Shown in pieces: positions 21,413-47,578 of a DNA stretch of 64,000 nt. The stretch is from Leptolyngbyaceae cyanobacterium (GTDB taxonomy: Bacteria; Cyanobacteriota; Cyanobacteriia; Phormidesmidales; Phormidesmidaceae), in contig CBDHHL010000025.1 in assembly GCA_965263355.1 (NCBI GenBank), positions 32,001 through 96,000 of the forward strand, given 5' to 3'. A program made the position numbers and the translations under genes. Position 1 is the stretch's first letter; every line of letters begins with the position of its first letter. Below the pieces are notes generated by a model. The model ran no database searches. It saw only the letters and a program-made list of their open reading frames with translations, and was not told the DNA's origin.

Positions 21413-22189
21413 ATGCACTACTTGTCTTTGTTTTTATACCCACTGCTGATAATTTCAGTATCAGGAGTAATTTTCTGGTCTTGGGAACTTCAACAGCCAT
21501 TGCGCAAAATTCCACACTTGCCAACATTCCTTCAGGATCTGAAAGAACTACCTATTATTCTTCTATTTATTGTTCTTTCTGCAAAGATTTATGCATATTT
21601 AGAAAGTTTATATATTCTGCCATTTTTTGAGGTTCTAGGTCAGAAACATAACTGGATTCTGATTCTATCAAGCCCTTTATGGATAAGAGTTGTTGTTGCA
21701 ATTTTACTCAAAGATTTAATTGCATACTGGTATCATTGGATGATGCATCATAATCTTGTTCTTTGGCATGCTCATAAGTGGCATCATATGCAGCAGCAAA
21801 TGTATTGGTTGAAAGGAAATAAAAATTCTTTGCTAGCTAAATTTATTGCTAAGTGGGACTTCATTGGATTCGCACTTCTAGGAATTCCCTTAGATTTAAC
21901 GTTGTTTTTTATCACACTCTACTCATTTTTTACCTTTTTTGTTCATAGCAATGTTGAGTGGCGACCTTGGATGAAGTATGTTGAGTATGTGTTTGTAACT
22001 CCTCGCTATCATCTAGTTCATCACTCCAGTAATATTGAACTTCAACAAAAGAACTTGGGGGATGTGTTCACATTTTGCGATCGCATATTTGGCACTTATA
22101 TTTGTCCAACAACTTTTGATATCGAACATGAAGATTTTGGCCTTGACGAGGAAGAGCCCTTAACCCTAAGAGTCATCTTAGGACTCTAG
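21413..22189 (+). CDS. Sterol desaturase/fatty acid hydroxylase family membrane di-iron enzyme
   Basis: His boxes YWYHWMMHH, WHAHKWHH, FVHSN, YHLVHHS; NLG...DRIFGT; transmembrane segments. Confidence 0.9.
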   Translation: MHYLSLFLYPLLIISVSGVIFWSWELQQPLRKIPHLPTFLQDLKELPIILLFIVLSAKIYAYLESLYILPFFEVLGQKHNWILILSSPLWIRVVVAILLKDLIAYWYHWMMHHNLVLWHAHKWHHMQQQMYWLKGNKNSLLAKFIAKWDFIGFALLGIPLDLTLFFITLYSFFTFFVHSNVEWRPWMKYVEYVFVTPRYHLVHHSSNIELQQKNLGDVFTFCDRIFGTYICPTTFDIEHEDFGLDEEEPLTLRVILGL

Positions 22190-22195
22190 AAGACA

Positions 22196-23659
22196 ATGAC
22201 ATCTTATTTACTTACTAACTCTCAAAAAAGATGGGCTATTGCCGGAATTGGCACAAGTGCCTTAATGATTTCGACAGAGTTCTATATTGTCGGAGCTATT
22301 ATTCCTGTACTGATGGAGTATTTCCATGCAAGTTTTATGACAGTGCAGTGGATTATTCTAATTTATACGCTTGTCCTAACAGCCATGGTTCTTGGCGTAG
22401 CAAGGTTAGGAGACATCTACGATAAAAAACAGTTATTCTTGATTGGACTACTACTATTTACAGTTAGTTCATTGCTCTGTGGACTTGCATCTAGCATTAC
22501 GGCTCTAATTGTTTTCCGAGGATTACAGGGACTGGGAGCCGTGTTGATATGGGCGCTACGTAACGCAATTGTAACAGAAATATTTCCTGAAGACGAGAGG
22601 GGACAAGCAATCGGTTGGGTGACAGGACTTTCCTCTCTAGGGTTAGCGATTGGTCCAGGAATTGGTGGTTTGTTAATAGGTATTGGTGGTTGGCGTCTTT
22701 TATTTTGGATCAACCTTCCATTGGGGCTACTTGCCGGTTTAATTGTCGCTCGATATATTCCGAATTGCTTAGAGAACGGTCATTATAAAAAGTTTGATAC
22801 GATTGGGTTACTGCTGATGTTCATAACGTTGTCTTGTTTCGTCTTAGGAACATCGCGGTTACAAGATCTAAGCTCTATTGGGTTTCCTGAAATTGTGTTG
22901 ATGACTTTAAGTTTGGTCGGTTTCATATGTTTTTGGTACATTGAATCTCAGGTTGAAGAACCAATACTTGACTTAGAACTATTCCAGCTGCCTAAAATCA
23001 ATACAAATTTGCTGCTGTTTTTTGCAGTTTATATAATTGTTGGCCTTATTCAACTGGCATTTCCACTGTTCCTTGAATTGGGATTACACTACCCTACTAA
23101 TAAGGTGGGCTTTTTGCTAACGGTTTTACCATTGATGTCTGTTATTGTTTCACCTGTTTCAGGGTCACTTTCTGATCAATTTGGCGGTCGTAATGTTAGT
23201 TCTATTGGGCTTTTACTCATTATAATTGGATGCTTAGCATGCAGTACCTTAAATCAAGATTCAACAGTTATAGGTTTCTGCCTGCGGGGAATTCTTGTGG
23301 AATTGGGCCTGATTATTTCAGTAATACCAATCAGCAAAGTTGTTATGGATACAGTTCAACAGGAACAATTCGGAATTGCTTCAGGTTTACTGGCTCTCTC
23401 AAGAATGATTGGCATAGTCATGGGCACATGCTTATTTGGTATTTTCTTCTATATGTTTACTGTTTCTAATAGTAAATTACTGCCAAACCTTGAAAATAGT
23501 AGCAGTATGGCGAACCCATTGGATATGATGAGCTTACCGGTTATTACACTAATCCACAGTATAGACAGTATATTTCTTGCGATGGCTTTAATTGCCTCTG
23601 CTGCTGTTCTAATTCTTGTCTGGGAGTTACTCAGCATTAGCTGTAAAGAGAAGGCGTAA
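22196..23659 (+). CDS. MFS (DHA2-type) efflux transporter
   Basis: ARLGDIYDKK motif A, FRGLQGLG, GPGIGGLL motif C, WRLLFWINLP; many hydrophobic helices. Confidence 0.9.
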   Translation: MTSYLLTNSQKRWAIAGIGTSALMISTEFYIVGAIIPVLMEYFHASFMTVQWIILIYTLVLTAMVLGVARLGDIYDKKQLFLIGLLLFTVSSLLCGLASSITALIVFRGLQGLGAVLIWALRNAIVTEIFPEDERGQAIGWVTGLSSLGLAIGPGIGGLLIGIGGWRLLFWINLPLGLLAGLIVARYIPNCLENGHYKKFDTIGLLLMFITLSCFVLGTSRLQDLSSIGFPEIVLMTLSLVGFICFWYIESQVEEPILDLELFQLPKINTNLLLFFAVYIIVGLIQLAFPLFLELGLHYPTNKVGFLLTVLPLMSVIVSPVSGSLSDQFGGRNVSSIGLLLIIIGCLACSTLNQDSTVIGFCLRGILVELGLIISVIPISKVVMDTVQQEQFGIASGLLALSRMIGIVMGTCLFGIFFYMFTVSNSKLLPNLENSSSMANPLDMMSLPVITLIHSIDSIFLAMALIASAAVLILVWELLSISCKEKA

Positions 23660-23713
23660 GAGTATATTACGAATATCACATTACTAAACTTAGCTATCTT
23701 TTGAAGTAGAGCT

Positions 23714-24460
23714 ATGCAACATCACAAGTTATTTGATGATAAAGCTGATTTGTATGCAAGCTCCAGGCCAACGTACCCCAAAGAAATATATAACTATCTA
23801 TCTAGTTTATGCAGTTCAACGCTGACAGCATGGGACTGTGCCTGTGGAAGTGGTCAAGTAGCAATAGGTTTGATTGATAAATTTGAGCGGGTTTACGCAA
23901 CAGACATTAGCGAAAATCAGCTAACTAATGCCAAACTACACCCAAACATCACTTATAAAATATCCTCTGCTGAAAACACCAATTTTGGTGATGATTTTTT
24001 TGATCTTGTTTGTGTTGCCCAAGCTCTTCATTGGTTCAATTTAGAAAGCTATTGGAATGAAGTGCACAGAGTTCTTAAGCCCAATGGTGTGTTTTCAGCT
24101 TGGGGTTATCTTTGGTCACCTGTGGATGAGTCTATAGAATCAGTAATTCAAGAATATATCTGGGATATAGTTGAACCTTACTGGACACCGCAGCATAGTC
24201 TTTTATGGAATCGTTATCGCAACATAGACTTTCCTTTTCGCAAAATCGAATCACCAGTCTTCAAAATGAACATGCTTTTATCTATCGATGAGCTTTTCAA
24301 CTTAATTCATACAACTTCTGCTGCTCGTCGGTATATGGATGACCATGGGGATGATTTTTTCCGAGAAGCCTATACTGCTGTCAGTGAGATTTGGGGTAGT
24401 CTGATACAGAAGAGAAAGATAGCTTTTAGTCTCATATTTTATGCTGGCCGTAGCAGATGA
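23714..24460 (+). CDS. Class I SAM-dependent methyltransferase
   Basis: YASSRPTYP, AWDCACGSGQ motif I, ATDIS, DLVCVAQALHWF, VLKPNG. Confidence 0.9.
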   Translation: MQHHKLFDDKADLYASSRPTYPKEIYNYLSSLCSSTLTAWDCACGSGQVAIGLIDKFERVYATDISENQLTNAKLHPNITYKISSAENTNFGDDFFDLVCVAQALHWFNLESYWNEVHRVLKPNGVFSAWGYLWSPVDESIESVIQEYIWDIVEPYWTPQHSLLWNRYRNIDFPFRKIESPVFKMNMLLSIDELFNLIHTTSAARRYMDDHGDDFFREAYTAVSEIWGSLIQKRKIAFSLIFYAGRSR

Positions 24461-28524: not shown

Positions 28525-28817
28525 AGAGTATTAATACGTCTTATCACTAGACCAACTAAACCTCGTTTATGCCAAGAGGTCAGTTGTTCCAACTTACAAA
28601 TCTCTTGGGTGATTCGATCCAGGACAATGGCGAGAACAACAATTCCCAGCCCACCAACCGCTGAGAGACCCACATCCAGTCGGCCTACGCCTTGGAGAAC
28701 CATTAATCCTAGCCCTGGCACTGCAATCATGGCCGTAATCACCGACATGCCCAAAGCAAAAAGAACCGTTTGATTGATCCCAGCTAAGATACTAGGCATA
28801 GCCAAGGGCAACTGAAT
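28521..28817 (-). pseudogene. proW: 3' remnant of a glycine betaine/proline/carnitine ABC permease (ProW/OpuAB-like)
   Basis: IQLPLAMPSILAGINQTVLFALGMSVITAMIAVPGLG...GGLGIVVLAIVLDRITQ is the ProW C-terminal segment; the 5' part is missing. Confidence 0.85.
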
Positions 28818-29041
28818 TACGACAACAGCTGTGGACTCAGTTGAAGGAAATCGGCGGGGTTCATATCAATGGTCATCCCACGTCCTCCCATGTGCTCTTG
28901 GCCATGGGGCGTCCAAAGCCCCTGGCGAGTGCTTCGATTCGATTTGGCTTAGGCCGAGCCACAACAGCAGTGGACATTGAACAGGTTGTGAAACACACCA
29001 CACAAACCATTTAGACTCTGCGCACCCGGCAGCATGGGTGA
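28814..29041 (+). pseudogene. Internally deleted 3' remnant of an IscS/NifS cysteine desulfurase
   Basis: ELRQQLWTQLKEIGGVHINGHPT-SSHVLLAMGRPKPLASASIRFGLGRATTAVDIEQVV; the SGSAC catalytic loop normally between NGHP and SHVL is absent; in-frame TAG near the end. Confidence 0.8.
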
Positions 29042-29062: not shown

Positions 29063-29689
29063 TTAACAAACCCGATAGGTCCAAATTTGCAAATAAATAT
29101 CAGGCTCAGTTTCAGGATGATTCTGAAAGGGGTCTCCAGTTTCAACTAATGTCCATTTTTCTGCTGCCTCAAGCGCTGGGAGCTTGTCCTTGAAGTCGCT
29201 TTTTTCATAATAGTCAGGACGAATTGTAAAGATGATATGACCTCCAGGTTTCGTAATGCGAATCAGCTCATCAAAACCACTACTAGGCGCGTGACCAATG
29301 GTGAATGTTCCCACACTGACAACAGCGTCAAATGAATCCGAAGAGAAATTTAGGGGAGTGCCTAATATCCCCTGATGGAGGCCTGTATAAACATTCTTTT
29401 TGCGGGCTTCCTCTAACATACCGATGGACAAATCCATCGCTTCCAAATTGGTATAGCCACGCTGATGCAGAACCTGTCCCACAAGTCCCGTCCCCGCTCC
29501 AGCATCCAAAATTTTAGATTCTTGAGAAACGTATTTAGCCAAGGTGTCGACGGTTAATTCTGGACAGAGATAATTCTCAGGTGGTAGATCACTATCGTAT
29601 TTCTTCGCCCAATCATCATAGCGTTCAGCTAATTCTTGAGCATTTTTGGAACTGTAAACCCAATGGACATTATCTGTTTTTGTAGTCAT
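29063..29689 (-). CDS. Class I SAM-dependent methyltransferase, co-oriented downstream of the NRPS-PKS
   Basis: YDDWAKKYD, ILDAGAGTGLVG, AMDLSIGML, FDAVVSVGTFTIGHAP, ITKPGG. Confidence 0.9.
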   Translation of the reverse strand: MTTKTDNVHWVYSSKNAQELAERYDDWAKKYDSDLPPENYLCPELTVDTLAKYVSQESKILDAGAGTGLVGQVLHQRGYTNLEAMDLSIGMLEEARKKNVYTGLHQGILGTPLNFSSDSFDAVVSVGTFTIGHAPSSGFDELIRITKPGGHIIFTIRPDYYEKSDFKDKLPALEAAEKWTLVETGDPFQNHPETEPDIYLQIWTYRVC

Positions 29690-29755
29690 GACTCTTGACT
29701 CGTGTAAAAGTTACCAAAGTTATCTTGTACAAATTACCGCCCTTGGGGCAGGTGT

Positions 29756-32700
29756 TTATACTTTTCTAACCAAATCAACCGTGAATTGTTGAGCTAAGAC
29801 ACCTACATGAGGTGCTTTCAACAGGGTAAAATGATCGCCTGGAACTGTCTGAACCGTCAGGGAATCAGACAGTGATTGCCAGCCCCAAGTAGGATCCGTC
29901 AGTGTTTGGATGGCGTTAGGCAAATAATCACCTAAAATTCCTATCTCCTGGGCGCGGATAAAGGTCATAGGAATTCCTTCGAGCTGCTGAGGCTGGTAAC
30001 AGGCGCTGGCTTGAGTATTTGCCTTATACACGGCCAAAGACCGCCTTAAGTCAATTGTAGTGATGTTCTGTCCTGCTGTTTGCAACGCCGCTAGTAAAAC
30101 CTTGATCGGATCGTTTGTGACGCTAAATTCAGTCGGTGAGAGTGCTAGCGGTTGATCCACTAACCCTTGATAAAACTTGGCGAGTTCAATGACGTATTGG
30201 GTATCTGACCACTGATCAGAGGTTTGCTCAATATCAGGAACTTCCCGCTGGATATCTATCAGAACTAATCGAGAAATCTGGTCGCCCTGAGCTTGCAATT
30301 GCTGTGCAATCTCAAATGCCACTTTGCCACCGAAGGAGTATCCACCTAGATAATAGGGGCCTTTGGGTTGCACTGCTTTTATAGCTCGAATATGGTGGGC
30401 CGCTATATCCTTCATATTAGTGTACGGAACAATATTCTCATCTAACCCAAGGGAACGAAGCCCATAAAAGGGTTGATCTGTTCCCAATGCCTGAGATAAG
30501 GGCTGAAGATCTAGAACTGTTCCTAAAATGCCAGAGGCACAGAAGATAGGTGGCTGAGAACCCTGGGGTTGAATCGGTACTATGGTCGAAGAGAAAGACG
30601 GTGAACTGTTGCCATTATGTTGGGGCACCGCTGATTGAGGAGAATTTTGCCTAAGACTGGTGCCTTCAGTCTCAGGAACAATCAGCTCCATCAGTCGATC
30701 AACCAGGGCTGTAATGGTGGGATAGTCGAACACTAGGGTTGTGCGCAGGTTGCACCCTAAACTTGCTTGAAGGTCGTTCCTCAATTCAACTGCTGCTAAG
30801 GAATCTAACCCCAAGTCTACCAATCGTTGATCCAGATCAAGTTCCTCAGCTGTTTTCAAGCCTAGAGTTTTTGTGACTAACTTATAAACATGCTTTAATA
30901 CCAGGTCTCGGCGCTGATCAGCAGGCGTAGTCTGTAAAATAACTCGGATATTCTGAGTAGCCGATTGAACGGTGACCACTGAGGCGACCTGCTCATAAAA
31001 TCGGGGACGTTGTGAGAACTGTTGCACCCACTTTGACCATTCAACGGGCATTACTCCAATTTGACCTGCAGCCTGCGGCAATAGTTGACCAAGGATAGAC
31101 AATCCAGCAGTCGGTGCAATGTTAGCCAACCCCCAGTCTGCTAAGCGGTCCTGCTGGTCTTGATTAAGGCGAGCACTCATACCGACTTCCCCCCAAGGCC
31201 CCCAGTTGATACTGACCATAGGCAACCCTAGGGACTGGCGATGATAGGCCAAGGTATCCATAAAGGCATTGGCCGCTGCATAGCTGGCTAACCCATGGGA
31301 CCCTAACAGCGAGGTTAAAGATGAGAAGCAGACGAAGAACTCCAAAGGCTGTTGTTGCGTCAGTTGTTGTGTTAGCTGATGTAGGTTCCAAGTTCCTTGG
31401 ACTTTTGCCGCTAATCCTTGGGCAAACCGAGGCCAATCTTGTTGCCATAGGCCACCAAACTCAACCACGCCTGCTGCATGGATAATCCCCAGCAGCGAGC
31501 GCTCAGACGCTTTCAATGCATCCAAAATTGCTCTAACCTGCTGGGCATCGGCAATATCTGCCTGGACAATAGTAATATCAGCACCTGCCTGTTCAAGCCT
31601 CTGAAGCTGTTGTTGCATATGGGGCTGAGCCTGACTCCGACCGACTAAAACCAACTGCCGAGCACCGTGGGCAACCAGCCATTCTGCCACCTGCAAGCCT
31701 AGGGCTCCCAATCCCCCTGTAATCAGATAAGACCCATCTGCATGGCAGGTGAACGATTGACCTGATAAAGCATCGTTGCGGCGTTTGAGTCGGGCAACAT
31801 ATCGGGTTTGGTTGCGCCAGATGACTTGCTCTTCGCCGTCCTGCGATCGCAATTCTGCCAGTAGAGAGGAGACCAGGGTTTCATCATGGGCTTGAGGCAA
31901 TACATCAACCCGAACACAATGCAGATCTGGATGTTCTAGGGCAATGACTTTGCCCATGCCCCAGAGAGGAGATTGAGCCAATCCAGGAACAGTTGTTGAT
32001 GAGGCTGATGCACCATTGTACTGACCTGAACCGTTATGGCTGCTGGCATGAAGATTTGCAAAGGCTTGAGCGCCTTGGGTCACTAACCAGAGATGGGGCA
32101 ATTTGCCATCACGACCAATCAAGCTCTGAATTAAATGTAATGTGCTAGCACAGCTTATCTGTGCCGCCGCTTCCAAATCCTGAGTCGTTAGCTCTACCCC
32201 AGCTGTAGGCGCTTTCAAACTCCACAGATGAACAATACCCTGACACTCAGGTACTGTTTCCAAAAGCTGCTTAAAATGCTCCACATTAACTGGGTCGACT
32301 TGGAAGACCTGCTCACTGATTTGCCCATAGGTTTTGCCAGGGTAGACGAGGATGGTGCGATCACCTTGAGCTTGCAAAGCATTAACCAGTTGCGGTCCAA
32401 CACCTTGGATATCCGCAAAAATCAGCCAATGACGGGATTGATAAGGACTGGGCTGACTGGGTTTAGGCTGCCACTCAACCTCATAGAGCCACTGATCAAA
32501 CGCGTCAACAGATCTCTCCGATGTAGCAGGCTCTGGCGTAGAACTGAGTGCTCCATTCTGTTCTAGTAATCCACCATTGCGATACCAAGCCGGAGCCTCA
32601 ACCCAATGGCGCTGTCGCTGGAATGGATAGGTGGGAATCGGCTGCCGACATCGACTGTAGTCCTGGTCAAATCTTTGCCAGTCAATGGTGACCCCCTGTT

Positions 32701-35700
32701 GGTAGAGCGTCGCCAAACTGGTGAGCAATTGTGCCCAGTCTGTGCGCTCAGGGTGCAAACTGGGTAGCCACAACCCTGAATGCTCACTTAAACATTGGCG
32801 ACCCATGCCTAACAAAACAGGCTTGGGACCTATCTCTACTAGGATTTGTACGTTTTCTTGAGCCAATACATCCATGCTGGTCCTAAATTGAACCGCTTGT
32901 CGGATATGTTGACACCAGTAGTCGGGCTGGAGCACGGCATTGGTCACCAGCGTACCTGTGACATTGGACACTAGCGGAATCTGAGGGGGAGCAAAGGTGA
33001 CCTGTTCGACCACCTGAGCAAACTCGGCTAGCATTGGCTCCATCAGCGCTGAGTGAAAAGCATGGGACACCTGAAGCTTTCTATATTTAATGTTGGCCCG
33101 CTCACTCTGAACACAAATCGCATCTAGCTCCCGCTGATCACCAGAAATTACGATGCTCTCCGGACCATTGAACGCTGCTATGGACACATTGGGATAGTTT
33201 TGCAGAGCAGTCTTGGCCTGTTCTGCTGTTGCCAATAGCGACACCATACCGCCCCCAGCGGGTAACGCCTGCACCAATCGACCTCGCAGAGCGATCAGTT
33301 TTAGGCCATCTTCCAAGCTAAAGACACCCGCCACACAAGCAGCGACATATTCCCCCACGCTGTGCCCCATAAGGATATCAGGCGTAATACCCCAGGATTG
33401 CCACAGTTGATATAAGGCATATTCAATGGCAAAAAGCGCAGGCTGACTGTAAACAGTCTGATGCAGGAGAGCGTCTTTATCAGCTTCAGCCGCGTAGAGA
33501 ATATCAATTAGCGAGCGATCCAGGTAGTCTTGAAGAATATCGTCACAGCGATCAAGCGCAGCCCGAAATGTTGGTTGCGTGTCGTAAAGCTGCCGACCCA
33601 TGTCAACATACTGAGACCCCTGGCCTGTAAATAGAAACGCAAGCTTTCCTTGAGCTGAAATAGTTGGAGAGGTCATCCCACCAGTTTCCAACCAGTCCTG
33701 AAGCTGTTGACCCAAATTTGCTTTTGACTCCGTGACGAACGATAGCCGTTCTTGAAAATGCTGGCGACCGACATTGGCGGTAAAACAAATATCCGCAAGC
33801 TTTGATTCGGACTCTGACTCTGACTCTGTATCTAAATACTCCAGATAGCGCTGAGCTAATGACTGAAGGGCAGGGACCGTTTTAGCCGATAAGGTCAAAA
33901 GGTGGTGCGATCGCTCTCCCTCGACCATCCCGTCTGACACCTGACGTCTAACGTCTGACGTTGCGGGCGCTTCCTCCAACACCACATGACAATTGGTACC
34001 CCCCATGCCAAAGGAACTTACTCCGGCGCGACGAGGCGTGCCATTCCGGGTCCAGTCTGTCAGCTCGGTATTGACGTAAAAGGGACTATTGGCAAAATCA
34101 ATATTGGGGTTGGGTTGCTCAAAATGCAGGCTCGGAGGCAATTGCTGATGCTTCAAAGCCAATGCGGTTTTAATCAGCCCTACCACCCCTGCAGACTCAA
34201 TCAAGTGGCCAATATTGGTTTTGACCGAGCCAATGGCACAGAAACCCTTCTCAACCGTGCTTTGGCGAAATGCCTGGGTGAGCGCAGTGATTTCAATCGG
34301 ATCACCCAAGGCCGTCCCTGTGCCGTGGGCTTCTATATAGCTAACGGTGCTGGGGTCCACATCCCCGGCTGCCAGGGCGCTTGTAATTACCTCCGCCTGC
34401 CCCTCAACACTAGGAGCGGTATAACCCACCTTAGCTGCACCATCATTATTTATGGCCGACCCTTTGACCACAGCGTAGATGTGATCCCCATCGGCCATCG
34501 CCTGATCGAGAGCTTTGAGGAGAACCACACCGACGCCATTGCCAAAGACAGTCCCTTTCGCCTGGGCATCAAACGCACGACAATGGCCGTCCGGCGAGCA
34601 AATCATATCGTCCTGGTAGAAATACCCCACTTCCTGAGGAACAGAAATGGACACCCCACCTGCCAGGGCCATATCACACTCACCGCTGAGAATACTCTGA
34701 CAGGCCATATGGACAGAGACCAACGAGGTTGAACAGGCCGTTTGTACATTCACACTGGGGCCGGTCAAATTGAGTTTGTAAGACACCCGTGTGGGCAGAA
34801 AGTCCTTGCTATTGGCCAACCGCACTTGCAGATCAGAGGCCGACCCCAGGAAAGTCCGCTGGGCTGAAAAATTTCTCTGGGGATGCACATTATTAATCAA
34901 ATAAGTATTCATCCCAGACCCGGCATACACACCAATCAACCCGTCATAGGTCTCAGGGTTATAGCCTGCATGTTCAAGCGTTTCCCAAGCAGACTCTAAA
35001 AAGATCCGCTGCTGCGGGTCCATAATCTCTGCTTCTCGACGGCTATAGCCAAAAAAGGTGGCGTCAAACCGGTCAATATCAGGGAGAACCGCACCGACTT
35101 TCACGTAGTCAGGATGCTGCAGCAGTTCTGGCTCTAACCCCGCCAACTCCTGGGCGGTAAATGGGGTGATTGATTCTACCCCCTGCTGTAGGTTTTGCCA
35201 AAATTCATCCACATTGGCAGCCCCCGGCACACGGCAAGCAATACCAATAATGGCAATGTCAGTGGTGGATTGTTTTCTAGCGGACACTCGCCGCTTAGCG
35301 GACACTCGCCGCTTAGCGGACACTCGCCGCTTAGCGGACACTCGCCGCTTAGCGGACACTTGCCGCCCATTTACTTGAGCACTCGATGACTGAGATTGTG
35401 CCGCTGGGGCCTCAGTAAGATAGTCGGCCAGAGTTTGAATAGTAGGGTATTGAAACAGACTGACAATCGACAACCGAGACGTCAACTGTTCTAGATCCGA
35501 GATATCAGCGCCAGCCCCTAAAACACTCGGATCTGCTCTGAACTGATCTGCCAGCTGTTGATACACCTGGGTCAGCAAAAGGGAATTCCCCCCCAGCTCA
35601 AAAAAGTTGTCAAGGGTTCCTACCTTATCCAGTTGAAGCACTTCTTGCCACACCTGGGCCAGATATTGCTCCATCTCAGACTGGGGCTCCACCATAGCCG

Positions 35701-38671
35701 TTGCTAACTCTGGACGAGAACGATCCGGAGCAGGTAATGCCCGACGATTTACCTTACCGTTCTGGGTCAGCGGTAACTCTTCTAAGGTGACAAAGGTAGC
35801 TGGCACCATGTAGTCCGGTAGCTGCTCTTGCAAATACTGACGCACCTGGGGCTCTAGCTTAACCGCCACCTGTCCTTGCAGGGGATTATTGGCATAGGCA
35901 CTCCAAGGCAATGTTGTTTTAGGGGGCTCTTGAAAACAGGGCGGCGAAGATATCGCCACCTGGTCTGGATAAAGTAACACGTCGTAGCATGTCTTATCGG
36001 TGGACCAGGTGATAGCAGCGGCAAAGGACTGTTCTTTGGCAAGACTCCAAATATCTTCTGGCTCGATTCCAGCCTTGTCCACGTTCTCATCAGCTACTCC
36101 GAGACGATCTCGCATCTCGGCCACAGTAGCAGGTTGTTCCGTAGAGCCACCATTCTGACCACTGGCTGATTTACTCTCCATCCATTCCAGTACCTGCATC
36201 TCAGAGGTTAACCGGGCATTTGGAATCCCAGTAATGAGAAAATGCTCTGAGGAATTCTCCTGCAACCGTTGCTGAACTGCTTCCAGGGTTAAGCCATCTG
36301 CTTTCCAATTAAGCTGCTGGGTCTGAACAGGGGCAGTGGGTTCCGGGCCAATGTGGAGAATGGCGTCGTAGCGGAACTTACTCATCTCATTATGGGCACA
36401 GCCTCGTCTCAGTTGAATATCTACCTGAGAAATCGGCAGATGCCGTTGCAATGCAGTGAAAAACTCGGGGGCAATGGCCATTTGCCCTTCCTGCACCATC
36501 TGCTTTCGAATTCGCTGGTGCAGTTGTTGGGTCGATAGTCCAGGAGGAGCCTGATATAACTGAATCGACGCGTGAAACGCTTCTAGCAACGGCAGGCTAC
36601 GTACATCACCCAAGAACAACCGTCCGCCTGGCTTAATCGCCTTGACCACCTCGGTAATTACCTTGACGAGATAATCAATCCCAGGAAAGAGCTGGACAAC
36701 CGAGTTAATAATGACCGTATCTAGGGAATTGGGTGCTAGGTCCGTCACACTGTCAGCCGCCCCCTGACGTAGGGTGACATGGGACCAATCTCCATCCATT
36801 TTTTGCATCTGGGCATTGATATACCCCAGGGCTTTAGGCGCAATATCCACCCCACAGTAGGATTGACAATGGGGTGCCACACCAAACAGCAGCATGCCCG
36901 TGCCACAGCCAATTTCTAAAACGTCTTGGGGCTGCCCCATGAGAATACGTTCGAGCGTCCCATCTAACCACTCTCGCATCTCAGAGGCGGGAATCGGTGC
37001 GCCAGAATAGCTATCATTCCAGCCATTGATATTAAATGTGGGATCTTCCACCTCTAGGGTTTCTTGAGCGTAGGCTAAATCCCATAATTCTTGCCACTGT
37101 GAGACTTGTTCTGCCTGGACATCGGCCTGGGCATTTGTCTCGTCATCAGTGGTCTCTGCGGGGTCCTCTCCTTGATAATTGGCATCTGGCACCATGTAGG
37201 CCACAAGCCGTTTGCCACCCCCCCCATTGGCTTGCTCATCCCTGGCCACAACAACACTTTGGCGTACGCCTGGATGCCGATTCATGGTGGCTTCAATTTC
37301 ACCTAGCTCAATCCGAAAACCTCGGATTTTTACTTGATGGTCAATGCGACCTAAAAATTCAATGTTGCCGTCAGGGAGATACCGCGCTAAGTCACCTGTC
37401 TTATAAATTCGAGGGGAATAGACTATGTCCACGGTTGCCGCATCATTACTCTGTTTGGCAAACGGATTAGGAATAAATCTCTCTTGGGTTAAGTCAGGCC
37501 GATTCCGATAGCCCCGTGCTAAGCCATCTCCACCGATATATAATTCACCAACGTCACCCACCGACACTGGGCGCAGGTCTTCGTCCAAAATGTAAATTAA
37601 GGTATTTGCGATGGGACGACCAATGGAGGCAGGAGTATTGGGGCGAGACGGGTCAAAGGATGAATGCTGGATAGAATGCACCGTGGACCAAATTGTGGCT
37701 TCTGTGGGGCCATACATGTTCCAGACACTGTCCACGCAATCCAGCAATTGCTCCGCTAAATCCGCTGGAAAGGCTTCTCCACCACATAGTACTTTTAACC
37801 CGGACTGTCCCTGCCATCCCGCCGCCAAGAGCATGTACCAGGTTGCTGGAGTTGCCTGCATCATGGTTGCATTGGTTGTCCGCAACAATCGAGCCAAGTC
37901 TGGACCTGATGAAGCGACCTCTCGGCTGGCAATGACGACTTGGGCACCTACCACTAGAGGCAAATGCAGCTCTAGCCCAGCAATGTCAAAACAAACTGTT
38001 GTTACGGCAACCAGTACGTCCTGATCTGTTATGCCAGGACGCTGGGCCATGGACGTGAGGAAGTTAACAACGGCTCGATGCTCGATTTGAACACCCTTTG
38101 GTTTGCCAGTTGATCCGGAAGTATAGATTGTGTAGGCTAAGTGAGTGGCCGTAACGTTACTCGTGGGATTTTCTTGACTACCCTGAGAAATGTCACCCCA
38201 ATCGGCATCTAAACAAATAACTGTGAGATCGTCTAAGGCGAGTCCTGTGGATAAATGCCCTGTAGCTAGGGACGATTGAGTGAGGAGAATCTTAGCTTGA
38301 GCGTCCTCCAACATATAGGACAGGCGCTCCAACGGATAGGCGGGATCCAAAGGAACGTATGCTCCACCAGCCTTAAGAATTCCTAAAATGGCCACGACCA
38401 TAGTAATCGAACGGTCCACACAGACACCCGTCAATGTATCTGGGCCAACATTTAAACTCTGGAGATAGTGGGCAAGTTGGTTAGCTTTTTGATTAAGTTC
38501 TCTGTAGGTAACCTGTGTTTGATTGAATCTGATTGCGATCGCATCTGGTGTACGCTCTACCTGCTCCTCGAACAGCTGATGCAAGCAACTATCAAACGGA
38601 TATTCTTTAGCCGTTTGATTCCACTCAATCGGTACAATATTGCGATCCTTTACCATAAACACAGGCAACAT
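29756..38671 (-). CDS. Hybrid NRPS-PKS: A(Gly, interrupted by N-MT)-PCP-KS-AT(malonyl)-KR-ACP-TE
   Basis: A domain: [70 protein letters not shown], between A8 and A9. [73 protein letters not shown]...PGDH. No C domain. Confidence 0.95.
35278..35367. repeat. 18-bp tandem repeat x5 in the PCP-KS linker
   Basis: TAGCGGACACTCGCCGCT four times exactly plus one variant; encodes R(Q/R)VSA(K/R) x5. Confidence 0.95.
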
Positions 38672-39280
38672 CTCCTACAGTTACTACAGATTGTTGAATA
38701 CTTAGCGATTGAAATTGCCAATACACCTTTTTGGATTTATCATTCCTAAAACTACTGTTTAGGGCGCTGAATGATGACCATAGGCAGCTAGTTGACAACT
38801 TTGAAACTTACAAATGCCTGACCAAAGCTGTGAATGAGGGCTCAGGAATACAGCAATTCTTAGTCTTACAATTTTTTAGAGTTGCCGTTTTCTCCAAATC
38901 CATATTTTCAATAGCTATTGTACTGACTTAAAAGTATTCAGGTTGGTTTTTGTGATATTTCTAAGGTACTTAATGACGATAATTAAGGTGAATTTTAATC
39001 ATATACCTTGCTAACCTCCTAAAGATTTGTTCAACCGGTGTCCCAATTTCAATGGACACACTTTTAATAAGACATTTCAAAAGTTCGTTAATCAAGTGAC
39101 AATTTTTGCACCATAGCCTAGTCATAAATTTGAATCGCAACTGCCACTGTAAATGGAGTGAGTATCATGGGATGCAATCAAACTATTACCAAAACTATTC
39201 AAAAGAGCCTTTTGCAAAGCAGACAAATTAATATCTGACTATGCTCCCATATCGTCAATTTCCCAAGCTATAACAAAGGA

Positions 39281-39652
39281 CTAAGTTCCATTATAGAAAA
39301 AAGCAATATCATCATATTGTTCTACTAGAAATAAGTTGATGACATTTTGCAAAGATAAATTTGAGCTGGAAAACCCTTGCAATCGCTTAAGAACGACTGC
39401 CAGCATCTTCTGCATTATTAAATTAATGTCCGTAATCAGAGCAATTTTTTGTTTGTTAGTTAAACCTTCTATAACTACATCTGTCACGTATTCTATCTCA
39501 AGAACTTTTTGTGCGGACAGATTATCTAAAACACTATTGCTCATGATACCATGCTGATAGCAGCTAGATGGCATTATTGTGTCATAATGATGAGATAAAT
39601 CCGTGTAATTACTGATCTTTGCTGCTCTACCCTTAAGTATTTCCATTTTCAC
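39281..39652 (-). pseudogene. Decayed class I methyltransferase (homolog of 47810-48091)
   Basis: YTDLSHHYD...KVLEIEYVTDVVIE aligns with YAGIASYYD...NILELGVGTGLLVE, but the GxGxG motif is lost and the ORF stops early. Confidence 0.6.
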
Positions 39653-40244: not shown

Positions 40245-41399
40245 ATGAGTATATACAATACGTTTACGTCAGAGTCAGTATCAGCAGGTCATCCTGACAA
40301 AATGGCTGACCAAATTTCGGATGCCATTTTGGATGCCATGCTCAAGGATGATCCCCACTCGCGGGTGGCGGTGGAAACCCTAGTCAAAACTGGCATGGCG
40401 ATTGTTGCTGGAGAGGTTCGCACCAACACCTATGTGGATTTGGAAGATATTGTTCGCGACGTCATTTTAGGTATTGGCTACGACAGTTCCGATGTGGGGT
40501 TTGATGGAGCCTCCTGTGCCATTGTCAACGCTATTGGTAAACAGTCCAGTGACATTGCCATGGGGGTGGACGAGGCTGAAAACAAAGATTTGGGTGCTGG
40601 TGACCAAGGCCTTATGTTTGGCTATGCCACCAACGAAACTGATGTGCTGATGCCCGCTCCGATTTACTATGCCCACCGCCTAGTGGAGCGCCAGGCAGAG
40701 TTGCGTAAAACCGGAAAACTCTCTTGGCTACGACCAGACGCTAAAAGTCAGGTGACCTTGAGATACGAAAACGGCAAACCTGTTGCTATTGATGCCATTG
40801 TGCTATCCACTCAACATGATCCCGATGTCACCCTGGGTGACATTCGTGAAGCTGTCATGGAGGAGATCATTAAGCCTGTGCTTCCCCATGACTGGTTGCA
40901 TGTGGGTACTCAGTACCACATCAACCCCACCGGGCAATTTATCATTGGTGGACCGGTGGGAGACTGTGGGTTAACTGGACGCAAGATTATCGTCGATACC
41001 TACGGTGGTATGGCACGTCACGGTGGTGGTGCATTCTCAGGCAAGGACCCCTCTAAAGTGGATCGATCAGCAGCCTATGCAGGTCGCTATGTGGCTAAAA
41101 ACATTGTTGCTGCGGGACTGGCTGATTTGTGCGAAATTCAAGTGTCCTATGCCATTGGTGTAGCTGAGCCTACATCTATCTCCGTCAATACTTTTGGCAC
41201 TGGTAAGCTTGAAGATGACAAAATTGCCACGTTGGTGCGAGAACACTTTGACCTGCGTCCCCAAGGTCTGATTGATATGCTGAATTTACGTCGCCCTATT
41301 TATCAGCAAACGGCGGCCTATGGTCACTTTGGTCGGGAACTGTCTGATTTTACTTGGGAACAAACTGACAAGGCCGAGCCGTTAAAAGCAGCACTGTAA
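40245..41399 (+). CDS. metK: S-adenosylmethionine synthetase
   Basis: [55 protein letters not shown]. Confidence 0.98.
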
Positions 41400-41429
41400 T
41401 TTTTGAGAAAACCTAAGAAAACGAAACCT

Positions 41430-42812
41430 ATGAGCACTTCAACACTCACCCGCGACTATAAAGTTGCCGATATTAGTCTGGCTAGCTGGGGACGCAAGGA
41501 AATTGCCATTGCAGAAGGTGAAATGCCGGCTCTCATGGCCATTCGCAAAAAATATAGCGATAGCAAGCCTCTGGCTGGAGCCAAGATTATCGGCTGTATC
41601 CACATGACCATTCAAACCGCTGTCCTAATCGAGACCCTAATCGAGCTGGGTGCAGAGGTGCGCTGGTCCTCCTGCAATATCTTTTCTACCCAAGACCATG
41701 CTGCTGCTGCGATCGCAGAAGTCGGTGTGCCCGTCTTTGCCTGGAAGGGAGAAACCGAAGACGAATATATGTGGTGCATTGAACAAACCTGCCGAGCTAC
41801 CGATGGCAAGCTGTGGGATGCCAACATGATTTTGGATGATGGCGGTGACCTAACAGGCTACATTCACGAAACCTATCCCGATATGCTCACCCATATCCAT
41901 GGTGTTACCGAAGAGACTACCACCGGAGTACATCGCCTGTACGAAATGCTAGAAAAGGGTGAACTCAAAATTCCTGCCATCAACGTCAATGACTCGGTCA
42001 CTAAAGCTAAAAATGACAATAAATATGGCTGTCGTCATAGCTTGAATGATGCCATTAAGCGCGGTACCGATCACCTGATGGCAGGTAAAAAGGCCTTAGT
42101 GATTGGCTATGGTGATGTTGGTAAAGGCTCAGTGGCCTCTCTTCGCCAGGAAGGCATGATTGTTAAGGTGGCTGAGGTAGATCCCATCTGTGCTATGCAA
42201 GCCTGTATGGATGGCTATGAGGTGGTATCTCCCTATGTCGATGGTGTAAATAATGGCGTTGCTAGTCTTAACAAGACACTTTTGGCCAACATTGATTTGT
42301 TGGTTACTGCTACGGGAAATGTGAATGTCTGTGATGCCCCTATGCTGACAGCCTTAAAGCCTGGAGCAGTCGTTTGTAATATCGGTCATTTTGACAATGA
42401 GATTGATACGGCTTACATGCGTCAGACCTGGCGCTGGGAAGAGGTCAAACCGCAGGTACATCAGGTTTACCGCAGCGATGATCCCCAAGACTTTCTGATT
42501 TTGTTAGCAGAAGGTCGTTTAGTAAATTTAGGGAATGCTACTGGCCATCCGTCTCGAATTATGGACGGGTCATTTGCCAATCAGGTGTTGGCTCAGATGT
42601 TCTTATTTGAGCGGAAATTTGCCGATAAGTCTGATCTGGAAAAGGCTGCAGAAATTACTGTGGACGTGTTGCCCAAGCAATTGGATGAGGAAGTTGCTCG
42701 CTATATGGTTGAAGGGTTTGGTGGTGTGATTACTCAGCTAACATCCACCCAGGCTGACTATATCAATGTGCCAATGTCTGGTCCTTTCAAGCAAGATAGC
42801 TACAAGTACTAA
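41430..42812 (+). CDS. ahcY: S-adenosylhomocysteine hydrolase
   Basis: [57 protein letters not shown] 41430 preferred. Confidence 0.98.
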
Positions 42813-42916
42813 CCGAAGTCCTCAGGACGGCTTTATAAAGGTCTATCTTTTGTCAAGTCGTCCTATTTTTCTCCTAGCATTAAAGTCTCTACAGTTCTTC
42901 AAAAAAGGCTATACCA

Positions 42917-43804
42917 ATGACGTCACTCCCCATTAGTTTTGAATTCTTTCCACCGAAAACGGCAGAGGGAGGGGCTCAGCTAATGGAACAGTATGCTATT
43001 TTAGCGGCCTGTCAGCCTGAGTTTTTTTCGATTACCTATGGAGCGGGGGGGACGACGCGCGATCGCACCAAACAACTTGTCCTAGATATTAATGCCAAAG
43101 AGATTCCCGCCGTTCCACACCTATCGTGCATTGGTGATACTCGGGCATCCTTGCGAACAATATTGGATACTTATAAGGGCGCAGGTATTCAAAATATTGT
43201 CACCTTGAGAGGCGATCTGCCTAACGATATGGATGATGTGGCCAATGAGTTTCACTACGCTGATGAGTTGGTCACATTTATTTGTCAAGAGTACAAAGAT
43301 ACATTTAATTTAATTGTGGCGGCCTACCCTGAGGTTCATCCTGAAGCTAAAAATGCTCAGCAGGACTTAGTCAACTTTAAACGCAAGGTTGACGCTGGAG
43401 CCGTCGCTGCCATTACTCAATATTTCTACAATCCAGACGCCTACGAAGACTTTGTGAATCGCTGTCATCAGGCAGGAATCACTATCCCCATTTATCCAGG
43501 GATTATGCCGATCACCAATTATGAACGGTTAGCTCGATTTAGCCGCATGTGTGGGGCACAAATTCCCCAATGGATTGAAAATCGCCTGCTTGATTATCAA
43601 GATGATCCGTCAGGGTTACAGGCCTTTGGGTTAGATGTGGTTACCCAGCTATGTGAAAAGTTAATAGCGCTGGGTGCACCTGGATTTCATTTTTATACGT
43701 TGAATCAGGCAACGCCTACCCTAAAAATTCTAAAAAATCTAGGACCTACAGTGGCCTATGAATCTACCTTAAACCTAGCGTCAGAAAAACTTTTAGCTCA
43801 TTAA
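42917..43804 (+). CDS. metF: 5,10-methylenetetrahydrofolate reductase
   Basis: SFEFFPPKT, SITYGAGG, LRGD, AAYPEVHP, KRKVDAGA, ITQYFY, PGIMP, HFYTLN. Confidence 0.97.
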   Translation: MTSLPISFEFFPPKTAEGGAQLMEQYAILAACQPEFFSITYGAGGTTRDRTKQLVLDINAKEIPAVPHLSCIGDTRASLRTILDTYKGAGIQNIVTLRGDLPNDMDDVANEFHYADELVTFICQEYKDTFNLIVAAYPEVHPEAKNAQQDLVNFKRKVDAGAVAAITQYFYNPDAYEDFVNRCHQAGITIPIYPGIMPITNYERLARFSRMCGAQIPQWIENRLLDYQDDPSGLQAFGLDVVTQLCEKLIALGAPGFHFYTLNQATPTLKILKNLGPTVAYESTLNLASEKLLAH

Positions 43805-43903: not shown

Positions 43904-45454
43904 CTATCCTCGAATCACCGTAATCTGTCGTCCATTCGCTGTTGTAGCAGCGTCTGTTTTGGTACGTTCCGCCATCGGGGGTAACCCCTCCCGTCGATCA
44001 AAAATCATCAACCAACCAGTCTCTAACCCCAATCCTGCCAAATACTTATCCAACTGAACCAGGCCAGCCTTCAGCGGGTCCGGTCGTCCCGGTCGCCATA
44101 CCTTTAGCTCAATGCCCAGGGTGACTGCACCATAGCGCAAACACAGATCCATCCGATCTGTACCAATGGCATATTCTCTCTCTAACGTCCCGCCCCCGTT
44201 CACCACCCGGTGCAAAAAGGCCATCATCACTAAATGGGGCGCAATTTCATGGTATGGCGCGCTCTTCAACAACGGTTGCCCATGCTGTCGCCAAAATGAG
44301 AGAAATGCTTCTAACAGTTTATCCACATCCAACTGACCATCAGCCTGCAACCAGGTAGGGCTAATCTGCGGCAAACTATCCTGGGGACCGCTCGCCAGCA
44401 TCCGGGGCAACACCTCCTGATAAATTCGGTTGGCCACCACAATGCCCCCTTGAGACGAGCGACGCAGCAATCCCAAATCCACTAAATAGTCGCGATCATC
44501 TATAGGAACTTTGTTTAACTCCTGCCCTGCCATTAGGGGTTCAATCACCGCTCGAATCCGAGATTCTTCTAAGCGCTTGCTTAAGCTATCCAGATGAGTA
44601 TCTCGACGTTGAATCAACACTTCCTTCGCTTGATGAATATGCTCCAGTGTAATTGTCGTCTGTTCATCGGGGACTATCACTTCCACCACCTGACGCGCTA
44701 GGGCATTCACCAGCCAAGGTTGACCATGGGTTAGCTCAAATGCCAAAGCAAGGGCCTCTGGGGTAAACTGTTGGCCTGTTTCAGCAGTATGTTGACGATA
44801 CAGCTGTGCGACGTCCTCTGCACTGAAGTTACCTAGGGTAAATGACTCTACTTTTACATTAAACGGACTGGCCGTTTGCAAGCGCGTACTGCCGCCAGAC
44901 GTTACTTTATAATCCCGCACATCTCGCATACCAATTAAGGCGAGGGAGTGGGGAAAATTTTCAGGTCGTTGAGGATAGCCATCGCGCAGCTGTCGCAGCA
45001 CTGCAATTAGGGCATCATCCATCAGGGAATCGATTTCGTCAATTAGGACCACCAGCGGACGGGCACAGCTCCTCGCCCAGACCTGTAGGGCCGTACCGAT
45101 GCGGCGTCCATCTGCCACGTCAGGCCAGGGTGGGGGCTGTAATTCATCTGATAAATAACTCTGAGCCGCCCCGCGCCAGGCCTCTAAGATCGCTCGTTCG
45201 GCTTTGCCAGGATCATGACTAAAGGGTTGACCCACTTCAGCAGATACCATGATGGCACAATAGTCCCCGCTATCGGTTAGCTGTTGAGCCAGGGCTAACA
45301 TGGCCGTGGTTTTACCGGTTTGACGGGGTGCATGGACCACAAAATAGCTTTCCTGAGCAATCAGGCGATCTAAGGGGGGCAGCCGTTCGATTGCCGGTAG
45401 CATATAGTTTTTGTCTGGGCGGCAGGGTCCAGCGGTGTTAAACCATTTGGGCAT
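43904..45454 (-). CDS. AAA-like ATPase with C-terminal PD-(D/E)xK-like domain, copy 1
   Basis: Walker A APRQTGKTT, Walker B LIDEID, SPFN, GQPWLVN; C-terminal EREY...RMDL...IELK...QLDKY. Confidence 0.85.
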   Translation of the reverse strand: MPKWFNTAGPCRPDKNYMLPAIERLPPLDRLIAQESYFVVHAPRQTGKTTAMLALAQQLTDSGDYCAIMVSAEVGQPFSHDPGKAERAILEAWRGAAQSYLSDELQPPPWPDVADGRRIGTALQVWARSCARPLVVLIDEIDSLMDDALIAVLRQLRDGYPQRPENFPHSLALIGMRDVRDYKVTSGGSTRLQTASPFNVKVESFTLGNFSAEDVAQLYRQHTAETGQQFTPEALALAFELTHGQPWLVNALARQVVEVIVPDEQTTITLEHIHQAKEVLIQRRDTHLDSLSKRLEESRIRAVIEPLMAGQELNKVPIDDRDYLVDLGLLRRSSQGGIVVANRIYQEVLPRMLASGPQDSLPQISPTWLQADGQLDVDKLLEAFLSFWRQHGQPLLKSAPYHEIAPHLVMMAFLHRVVNGGGTLEREYAIGTDRMDLCLRYGAVTLGIELKVWRPGRPDPLKAGLVQLDKYLAGLGLETGWLMIFDRREGLPPMAERTKTDAATTANGRQITVIRG

Positions 45455-46096: not shown

Positions 46097-47578
46097 TCAA
46101 TTGAGCGTTTTTAATTTCTGTACACCCAGTAGGCAACTTAACCCATAGACTAGAAAGCCCGCGAGCATTCCTGGTAAAACCTCATAAATTGCTGCTGATA
46201 AGTTAAACCAGCTCCACAATGCCGCTGCAACAATCCCCATAGCCATCATGCTGACCCCGACTAGCGGCTGAACGGGCAATTTCCAGACCCGCAGCATTAA
46301 TATAGGCCCTAAGCCAGACCCCAGGGCCGACCAGGCAAAAAAGCCCAGGGCAATCAAATTTTTATCACTGGCTAGTGCGATCGCAAGAACAATTGCTGTG
46401 ACAATTAGCGTTCCAACTTTCACTAACCGGTAAGATTTGCCCATCGCAGGGAACAGATCTTGAGTCAGGGCTGCCGAGCAAGATAGAATCTGCGAATCCG
46501 CCGTTGAGATTACCGCTGAGAATATTCCTGCCAAAATAACTCCGATCAGCAGCGCAGGCAGTAAATCAATGGCCAGCTGTGGAAATGCTAGAGTTGGGTC
46601 ACCATTAGCCTTAATGAGATCAGGAAGTAAAACTCGAGCCGCTAGACCAACAACTAGTGCAGACGCAGAAAAGAATACATAGGAGATAGCATAGATATTA
46701 CGAACCAGTCCGATATGGTCAGGAGCATCGACAACCATTGCCCTCACCATAATATGCGGTTGACCAACGACACCAACCCCAGCAACAATCCAGCTGAGCA
46801 AAAATAATCCAAATCCATACTTAAGGTCTTGTGGAATAACATCAATTAAGATGGGGTCAATAGCGCCTAACTGTTGCCACATGCCGCTAAAACCACCACA
46901 GGTATGTAAGGCAACGCCCGTTAAGAGAAACATAGCTACTACCATCACAATTGACTGTACGGCATCGGTCCAAATAGAAGCACGGATGCCACCAGCAAAG
47001 CAGTAAGAAACAACAATGACTGTGCCGATAAGAACACCTAAATTATCGTTAAACCCAAAAATAGCGTGTAATGCTTTGCTTCCTGCTAACAGTTGTGTAG
47101 CAGCGTAGGTGCCCAAAAACGCAATTGTAATTACGGCAGCAAGCATTGCCACAGGGTTCTGCTCTTTACTATTTTGGGATAGAAAACTACCAATAGTTGT
47201 AGAGTCAGTTTCTTCTGAGACAATCCGTAAGGGTTATAGAAAGCTACCAATAGTTGTAGAGTCAGTTTCTTCTGAGACAATCCGTAAGGGTTTGTGAATA
47301 AAAAACCAAGTTATATAGTCTCCAAAAAACCAACCAAACAGCAACCAAAGACTTGAAATACCAAACTGATATGTGTACCCAATAACACCGATAAACATGG
47401 CACCGCTATGGGCAGTTGAGAACGTGGAAAGAGCCGTCATCCATGGGCTGACATCGCGACTGGCCAGTAAGTAATCTACTGTCGTATTCTGTCTATTAAC
47501 TGAAGAATACAGACCAACGCCAATAAATAATAAAAGAAAAATAGCAAAGCTTAGGGCAATGGCAAGTTGGTTTGGCAT
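46097..47578 (-). pseudogene. Sodium:solute (PutP-like) symporter interrupted by an in-frame stop
   Basis: ORFs 47234-47578 and 46097-47152 are in the same frame. SSS motifs DYLLASR, GGIRASIWTDAVQ, GQPHIMVR, SAVISTADSQ. The TAA is created at the junction of a 57-bp tandem duplication. Confidence 0.88.
47179..47292. repeat. 57-bp tandem duplication
   Basis: ATAGAAA(A/G)CTACCAATAGTTGTAGAGTCAGTTTCTTCTGAGACAATCCGTAAGGGTT at 47179-47235 and 47236-47292, one mismatch. Confidence 0.95.

Follow-up and report, generated by a model that had tools for sequence, protein, structure and literature searches.

A stand-alone hybrid of nonribosomal peptide synthetase (NRPS) and polyketide synthase (PKS) and a small METTL27-like methyltransferase (MT), encoded side by side in a 64,000-nucleotide stretch of a Leptolyngbyaceae cyanobacterium genome (assembly GCA_965263355.1, contig CBDHHL010000025.1, positions 32,001 to 96,000; hereafter the window), form an undescribed, conserved two-gene system that may well provide a new way to make carnitine. 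Its product is probably a linear, N-methylated C4 compound; the narrower proposal, a stand-alone route from these two genes to free carnitine, is a serious prospect that falls a little short of even. In the proposed mechanism, the adenylation (A) domain would load glycine onto the peptidyl carrier protein (PCP), the embedded N-methyltransferase (N-MT) would methylate the free amine repeatedly, and completion or backing up of N-methylation would fall to the METTL27-like enzyme. The ketosynthase (KS) and acyltransferase (AT) would add one malonyl unit, the ketoreductase (KR) would reduce C3, and hydrolysis by the thioesterase (TE) would release 3-hydroxy-4-(trimethylammonio)butyrate. Domains, motifs, conservation and neighbouring genes are read directly from the sequence, and the chemistry is deduced from the intact motifs. 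The literature searched (subscription journals and supplements aside) contains neither a description of this cluster nor an NRPS-PKS route to carnitine, in agreement with the preliminary description of the locus, which knew of no thiotemplate route.

Architecture of the synthase

Pfam analysis of the 2971-residue protein recovers AMP-binding (residues 34-388), MT (585-685), PP-binding, KS (1137-1518), AT (1679-1993), KR (2313-2494), acyl carrier protein (ACP, 2596-2660) and TE (2708-2954) domains and no condensation (C) domain, and domain-by-domain tblastn finds no second copy of any synthase domain in the window. These searches bear out the one-protein A-(N-MT)-PCP-KS-AT-KR-ACP-TE order, with neither a C domain nor nearby modules, that was first described. 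The intact C domain (HHxxxDG) and neighbouring modules that mark an elongation module are absent, and the synthase appears to act as an NRPS loading module joined to a PKS module of the terminal kind. The linker after the PCP consists in part of an 18-nt tandem repeat encoding VSAKRR in about five copies.

The A-domain pocket residues, at positions anchored on motifs and assigned through the GrsA numbering, are D229, I230, L233, Q272, L295, G297, M319, I327 and W328. The two best matches to the pocket region, PDB 4zxh and 5u89, are presumably both glycine-activating, and the pocket differs from that of 5u89 by a single residue (M for L at position 322). Re-reading of these residues reproduces the DILQLGMIWK pocket of the preliminary description, a code listed for glycine in PMC12283262. 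Because Asp235 is retained, a substrate with a free α-amine is expected, and domain and code together predict activation of glycine.

The remaining motifs comprise GGNSLL in the PCP, TACSTS, HGTGT and NIGH in the KS, K..S..YAAAN in the KR, GLDSL in the ACP and GYSFG..D..GDHF in the TE, together with GHSVG and HAFH in the AT, the latter typical of malonyl-type domains. Both the AT motifs and the catalytic Tyr of the KR are where they had been reported, and the segment from KS to TE shows every motif expected of a reducing cis-AT PKS module with release. Domains and motifs are thus consistent with the colinear logic proposed earlier, namely glycine, N-methylation, one malonate, C3 reduction and release. 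In the KR, VEF replaces the LDD motif whose third Asp marks B-type enzymes, and ketoreductases lacking this Asp give L-hydroxyacyl products, which points to L-(R)-carnitine. The assignment is tentative because the A-type marker, a Trp eight residues before the catalytic Tyr, is missing too, with Leu in its place.

The N-MT is an insert of about 400 residues between A8 and A9 that keeps motifs i, ii, iii and vi and carries NSVVQLFP in place of QYFP at motif iv and EGQMAI in place of ExEL at motif v. QLFP and EGQMAI recur, small variants aside, at all 14 loci of the family described below, and the domain probably works like a type I backbone N-MT that belongs to a divergent clade. Among contexts of this domain (85 of 504 could not be classed and were dropped), a non-Tyr motif iv occurs in 34 of 85 starter or half-C modules versus 6 of 334 modules behind an intact C domain. 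The Tyr-to-Leu change was nevertheless rejected as proof of multiple methylation, since most cases form one clade, and is kept as a family marker only.

The partner methyltransferase

The open reading frame (ORF) of the small MT lies 66 nt from that of the synthase on the same strand, as the reported co-orientation implied. Its best match is METTL27/WBSCR27 both in sequence (E 9.5e-26) and by Foldseek (E 6e-18). The top fold match is phosphatidylethanolamine N-MT (Z 19.4, root-mean-square deviation (rmsd) 2.8, 179 aligned), tied with the carboxyl MT ChlM (Z 18.6, rmsd 2.7, 178 aligned); matches to BioC are weak, and the match to the SDMT model (E 8e-4) is far under cut-off. METTL27 itself has no assigned substrate; for WBSCR27, nucleic acid is favoured on structural grounds, with a small molecule left as a possibility (PMC9240639). 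In gammaproteobacteria, distant METTL27-like genes sit among varied neighbours; the locus of G546, a genome flagged as unpublished, was excluded from this comparison and supports no conclusion here. At one family locus (L009:5696-6067), a partial METTL27-like gene also separates proV from proWX and is encoded on the other strand.

A conserved family of stand-alone synthases

Alignment of the MT region retrieved 79 related loci in GTDB genomes, 12 of which (L001-L012; motif NSVVQLFP, 50-61%) belong to the family. Metagenomes added L096 and L098; of the other two metagenomic loci, L095 repeats L009 and L097 is not a member. The resulting 14 distinct loci were compared with 68 control loci, and because family loci are related to each other, all neighbour counts and Fisher p-values overstate the associations. 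L001-L012 are found in Moorena (2), Symploca, Xenococcus PCC 7305, Lyngbya CCY1209, a Crocosphaera metagenome-assembled genome (MAG), five further cyanobacterial MAGs and Ca. Thiomargarita nelsonii; the named genera are marine. Multi-MT NRPSs ranked first in the MT-region homolog search, with family members making up 4 of the 120 matches listed, and the family range is reached in at least 1 of 401 cyanobacterial genomes (the centre genome; four candidates scored per genome). Plasmid records contain no member (best 45%). Contigs from four sequencing runs yield short pieces, a few of them near-identical (macroalgae X4, microbial mat X8, and the unlabelled run X6), and none that spans the cluster.

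All 14 loci encode a single module, with the glycine code wherever the pocket is present (L001 is cut at the contig start), and P0153 from Ca. Kentron has both the architecture and the KR type of the window. No second A or KS domain occurs in the fetched DNA at 12 of the 14, the other two having a further NRPS gene or gene fragment that carries a TE of its own, versus more than one A domain at 37 of 68 control loci. Homologs are thus not confined to larger multimodule clusters, and the window synthase represents a conserved stand-alone family rather than a fragment. At twelve loci the protein begins with at most the latter half of a C domain (roughly Pfam positions 190-456), L010 lacks it entirely, and the intact HHxxxDG motif is absent from family loci; with the C domain missing or halved, the amine should stay free.

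Ketide processing varies within the family: 11 loci have a KR only, L001 and L096 have none, and L002 has a dehydratase (DH), an enoylreductase (ER) and a KR. On a trimethyl-glycyl starter, these three states would give carnitine, 3-dehydrocarnitine and butyrobetaine, respectively. The KRs themselves are of two types, Asp-less versus xDD (L007-L009, L011 and L012; LDD in L002). The Xenococcus PCC 7305 cluster comprises just the synthase and the MT and has a KR of xDD type, and the DH-ER form is that of Symploca. The METTL27-like MT adjoins the synthase at 13 of 14 family loci versus 1 of 68 control loci.

Further neighbours recur at subsets of loci. A dioxygenase of the BBOX/TMLD/TmpA family lies within the fetched flanks of 4 of 14 family loci (L004, L006, L010 and, as a remnant, L002) and of none of the 68 controls; extension adds L003 (5 of 14 in total). 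It is mostly accompanied by a PhnZ/TmpB-like HD gene and CmcI, and this dioxygenase family matches in 4 of 401 cyanobacterial genomes. Full-length copies score 200-216 bits against a TIGR02409 cut-off of 414.75, placing them in the same superfamily as BBOX and not in BBOX itself. Betaine ABC transporters flank L005 and L009 (ProX and ProV of L009 above cut-off), and sodium symporters flank L005 and L098. A short-chain dehydrogenase/reductase (SDR) of 3-hydroxybutyrate dehydrogenase type occurs together with Sulfotransfer_5 at 7 of 14 loci; both KR-less loci carry the SDR, whose best-matching family is a free-acid enzyme. This context favours a trimethylammonium product, and the most fitting description of the family is a betaine-extending synthase with variation at the ketide step and added tailoring genes.

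Several other features were seen at individual loci. An FrhB-like (F420 hydrogenase beta) gene follows the cluster at L008:20051-21247 and L098:20766-21305. In Moorena producens, L003:19697-20603 holds a second TE remnant and transposases between two MT paralogs, which suggests the merger of two ancestral synthase clusters. Upstream of the Thiomargarita synthase, L005:3019-8168 encodes a hydroxyisobutyrate-dehydrogenase-like protein, a second METTL27-like MT, a 2-oxoglutarate dioxygenase, a Zn dehydrogenase and an enolase resembling hydroxyproline dehydratase, a possible betaine catabolism block.

Paralogs and synthase-free clusters

A paralog in genome G070 (L133:1640-17252) has the order A-MT-T-KS-AT-DH-ER-KR-ACP-TE and the code DSALIAEVWK, given for histidine in PMC12283262; P0154 and P0163 have the same pocket. 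It is followed, in one orientation, by genes for a dioxygenase, an HD protein, a METTL27-like MT, egtB and egtC, the last two above cut-off, and its MT falls in the same clade of 26 sequences (SH-aLRT 97), none of which has the motif Tyr. The substrate of EgtB is trimethyl-histidine, which links the family to N-trimethylation through this single locus. The G070 product could be a chain-extended hercynine or, via EgtB and EgtC, an ergothioneine homolog; a role as plain substitute for EgtD was ruled out because egtD is present elsewhere in the genome. A sister family with the order A(Gly)-N-MT-T-R (L013:8561-12853, L015-L018, L020, L021, L026 and L043; reductase confirmed by Pfam for L013 and L020), often accompanied by an SMR exporter and the same SDR, would colinearly give an N-methylated glycinal or ethanolamine, possibly choline.

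Related tailoring genes also cluster without a synthase. In Moorena producens (G001), L136:4663-14958, which is partly duplicated upstream (L149), encodes a PRMT-like MT, DUF3326, BBOX-like and TMLD-like proteins, a threonine aldolase fused to a METTL27-like MT, a cupin, CmcI and Sulfotransfer_5. This set appears to resemble a bacterial version of the classical carnitine route; its enzymes all fall under cut-off, and no aldehyde dehydrogenase is seen there. It can be read as a tailoring kit for a carnitine-like scaffold or, since the same genes recur in other clusters, as a general small-amine kit. A second synthase-free cluster, L151:4750-14717 (G177), contains two BBOX-like genes, an HD gene, Sulfotransfer_5 and dehydrogenases.

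A wider view, rated about as likely as the carnitine proposal, is that this synthase is the first member of a family of thiotemplated betaine synthases, in which an amino acid is trimethylated on a carrier protein and extended by one ketide. Glycine would then give carnitine, dehydrocarnitine or butyrobetaine by exchange of KR, DH and ER, histidine would give chain-extended hercynine, and the A-MT-T-R line would give choline-type alcohols.

Comparison with known systems

The synthase appears to fall outside the classical carnitine pathway, the fungal glycine betaine reductase ATRR and multimodule lines. The classical pathway, which proceeds through trimethyllysine hydroxylation, cleavage, dehydrogenation and BBOX (PMC11773067), shares the proposed end product and, at 5 of 14 relatives, BBOX/TMLD-family genes. 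Its enzymes (TMLD, aldolase, aldehyde dehydrogenase and BBOX) are absent among the 28 window proteins scanned, and the carbon of the synthase product would come instead from glycine and malonyl-CoA on a thiotemplate. ATRR (A-T-R-R) is likewise an NRPS-type enzyme of betaine metabolism, and establishes a betainoyl thioester on a carrier domain; it activates ready-made betaine through an aromatic pocket and reduces it to choline (10.1101/559534). In contrast, the synthase keeps Asp235 and the glycine code, with neither the aromatic cage that replaces the Asp235 salt bridge nor R-R termination, and would methylate on-line and extend the chain.

The two ends of the dolastatin 15 cluster offer further parallels. 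The Dol15A loading module (A-N-MT-T) is predicted to dimethylate the free amine of valine, and the Dol15F/G end, like the synthase and small MT, joins an amino acid, a PKS and a stand-alone MT (PMC13643306). These are the extremes of a seven-enzyme line, whereas here start and end are one protein, acting on glycine and with a KR. TioS-type interrupted A domains (type I, a8-a9; PDB 5wmm) share the insertion site and motifs i-iii and vi; unlike them, the window MT has Leu for the motif iv Tyr and an altered motif v, there is no upstream donor, so no peptide bond uses up the amine.

Reverse carnitine dehydrogenase/BKACE chemistry also builds the carnitine skeleton from a betainyl thioester and a C2 unit. 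Unlike the synthase, the BKACE and rhizobial bco routes use discrete, CoA-based enzymes and start from betaine or butyrobetaine. Betaine-to-carnitine labelling has been seen in seawater, with the enzyme unassigned (PMC9321204); since the synthase should start from glycine, it is probably not the source. Support from BKACE was sought and set aside: the gene is present in 2 of 5 hosts, with no carnitine dehydrogenase gene evident beside it in ORF listings.

Alternative products

The number of methyl groups should decide the fate of the chain: with one, the 4-aminoacyl thioester should close to a lactam, and with two or three the amine is blocked, closure is impossible and the thioester would escape as a linear acid. 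The linear branch is favoured because the small MT is kept at L002, where DH-ER removes the hydroxyl, because the KR-less loci carry a free-acid-type dehydrogenase, and because betaine genes are enriched.

Single N-methylation, cyclisation to 4-hydroxy-1-methylpyrrolidin-2-one and O-methylation by the small MT is the best of the alternatives, though unlikely. Five-membered closure of 4-aminoacyl thioesters is easy and established chemistry, type I N-MTs normally add one methyl, and methoxy-pyrrolinone ends are known in cyanobacterial peptides. The end of dolastatin 15, formed from an amino acid, a PKS and a stand-alone O-MT (PMC13643306), fits the same scheme. Retention of the MT at L002, whose lactam would offer no position to methylate, argues against it, and a lactam leaves the betaine transporters, the BBOX-family genes and the egtBC context unexplained.

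Somewhat harder to sustain is a carnitine methyl ester, formed if the embedded MT permethylates and the small MT esterifies the carboxylate (or methylates the 3-OH), which would make the product a cationic, acetylcholine-like secondary metabolite and not an osmolyte. The tie between ChlM and the top fold match, the weak BioC matches, the patchy distribution of the family and the presence of the small MT at loci of all three ketide states are accounted for in this way, and Sulfotransfer_5, at half of the loci, could restore a zwitterion. Osmoprotectant-type importers adjoin the cluster, however, and annotated family loci have no conserved exporter.

A line that ends with the mono- or dimethylamino acid (3-hydroxy-4-(dimethylamino)butyrate, or norcarnitine) is improbable. 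In its favour, the only published case found of a loading N-MT methylating more than once is the predicted dimethylation in dolastatin 15 (PMC13643306), and the accessible text of a survey of interrupted A domains (PMC8341866) makes no mention of trimethylation. The named families of the neighbouring dioxygenases all use trimethylammonium substrates, the egtBC link points to trimethylation, and a second MT is nearly always present. Least probable is a module that supplies a building block to, or ends the line of, a partner encoded elsewhere, as the half C domain of most relatives (a docking or split-C element) might suggest, or a decaying, silent window copy, as the broken flanking transporter genes might, since the window, L010 and P0153 have lost the half C but kept every catalytic motif, no missing-C-lobe gene or donor module lies upstream in the loci listed, and the TE is intact.

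Against the route to carnitine itself stand several observations. No precedent for trimethylation on a PCP was found in the literature; loss of the motif Tyr is mostly confined to one clade, and 51 starter-type modules keep it; and the fold tie between an N-MT and a carboxyl MT is compatible with either kind of substrate for the small MT. The dioxygenases fall far under the BBOX, TMLD and TmpA cut-offs, retain only part of the aromatic cage and, with a KR present, would have no step left to perform if carnitine is the end product. The MT, dioxygenase, HD, CmcI and Sulfotransfer_5 genes also occur in synthase-free clusters; in the window, genes for a dioxygenase, SDR and sulfotransferase are all missing and those for transporters are disrupted.

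Possible osmolyte role

In the preliminary description, the product was taken to be possibly carnitine, a compatible solute. The trimethylammonium product has gained support from comparative context, and the osmolyte role is the weakest part; an accessory compatible solute function is close to evenly balanced. A lack of other osmolyte routes in the hosts was considered and rejected: of the 5 host genomes tested, 4 contain SDMT-like genes and 2 contain GgpS, so the cluster is not needed as sole source. The rarity of the family is as compatible with a specialised metabolite as with an osmolyte, and building up solute to cell-filling amounts with a 330-kDa enzyme would be expensive. The accessible text of PMC6753628 names sucrose, trehalose, glucosylglycerol, glycine, glutamate and homoserine betaine as cyanobacterial solutes and does not list carnitine.

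Other genes in the window

Features of the cluster and its surroundings are collected in Table 1. The gene content of the window in itself suggests a cyanobacterial source. The ProW remnant is co-oriented with the small MT and lies about 210 nt after it. MetK of the divergent metK-ahcY-metF set is 74% identical to a Thiomargarita copy and 54-63% identical to four cyanobacterial copies, which suggests a foreign extra copy. The set is possibly a methyl supply for the cluster; it lies beside family synthases at 0 of 14 loci. The ProW remnant, metK-ahcY-metF and the QLFP variant of the MT motif had gone unmentioned in the first account. Any link between the PutP-like symporter and the cluster is uncertain. 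A promoter and terminator scan gave no more than chance level.

Table 1. Features of the synthase cluster and flanking genes (positions within the window)
Feature	Position	Strand	Basis or remarks
ProW-type betaine/proline ABC permease remnant, C-terminal part only	28539..28850	-	56% identity over 104 aa to ProW-ProX fusion of L009
METTL27/WBSCR27-like class I MT, 208 aa, conserved synthase partner	29063..29689	-	Sequence and Foldseek
Stand-alone hybrid NRPS-PKS, 2971 aa, A(Gly)-N-MT-PCP-KS-AT-KR-ACP-TE	29756..38671	-	ORF and Pfam
Type I TE, Ser-Asp-His motifs	29810..30550	-	Pfam and motifs
ACP, GLDSL	30692..30886	-	Pfam and motif
KR, catalytic Lys, Ser, Tyr, Asn; VEF replaces LDD, no A-type Trp	31190..31735	-	Motifs
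AT, GHSVG and HAFH	32693..33637	-	Motifs
KS, Cys-His-His motifs	33962..35263	-	Motifs
PCP, GGNSLL	35477..35671	-	Motif
Type I (a8-a9) backbone N-MT	35822..37111	-	Best PDB match 5wmm, E 7e-45
A domain core, DILQLGMIWK (Gly) code, Asp235 kept	37187..38572	-	Pocket residues
Probable decayed half C domain remnant, in-frame stops	38672..38860	-	Weak; compared with half C of most relatives
metK-ahcY-metF (S-adenosylmethionine (SAM) synthesis and recycling), divergent from synthase	40245..43804	+	Above NCBIfam cut-offs
PutP-like sodium:solute symporter, split	46097..47578	-	57-nt tandem duplication with in-frame stop

Upstream of the synthase, a low-GC ORF of 123 codons (39281-39652, minus strand) has no Pfam or NCBIfam match and no counterpart at related loci. 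Two near-identical AAA-ATPase genes (43904-45454 and 49184-50731, minus strand) lie either side of the broken symporter. An MscS-type mechanosensitive channel gene is found at 51360-53249 (plus strand); MscS genes also flank L005, L011 and L012, and the family is common. A low-GC cluster at 18668-24460 (plus strand), encoding an MppP-like pyridoxal phosphate enzyme, an isopropylmalate/homocitrate synthase-like enzyme, a fatty acid hydroxylase family protein, a DHA2 exporter and an MT, looks like a separate arginine-derived small-molecule pathway.

Implications

If the product is carnitine, a metabolite whose usual four-step synthesis begins with trimethyllysine, the family would represent a second, unrelated origin for it: a two-gene bacterial route that is de novo and independent of lysine, in which one megasynthase and one small enzyme draw on glycine, SAM and malonyl-CoA. 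Trimethylation on a peptidyl carrier protein would then have its first example, and the orphan METTL27-like methyltransferases would gain a first lead to a substrate. The rival products, too, would assign chemistry to a conserved orphan cluster, which is carried by the cultured Moorena producens 3L, Xenococcus PCC 7305 and Lyngbya CCY1209. The cluster would, if the proposal is correct, also be a new source of a marine betaine and a compact route to engineer.

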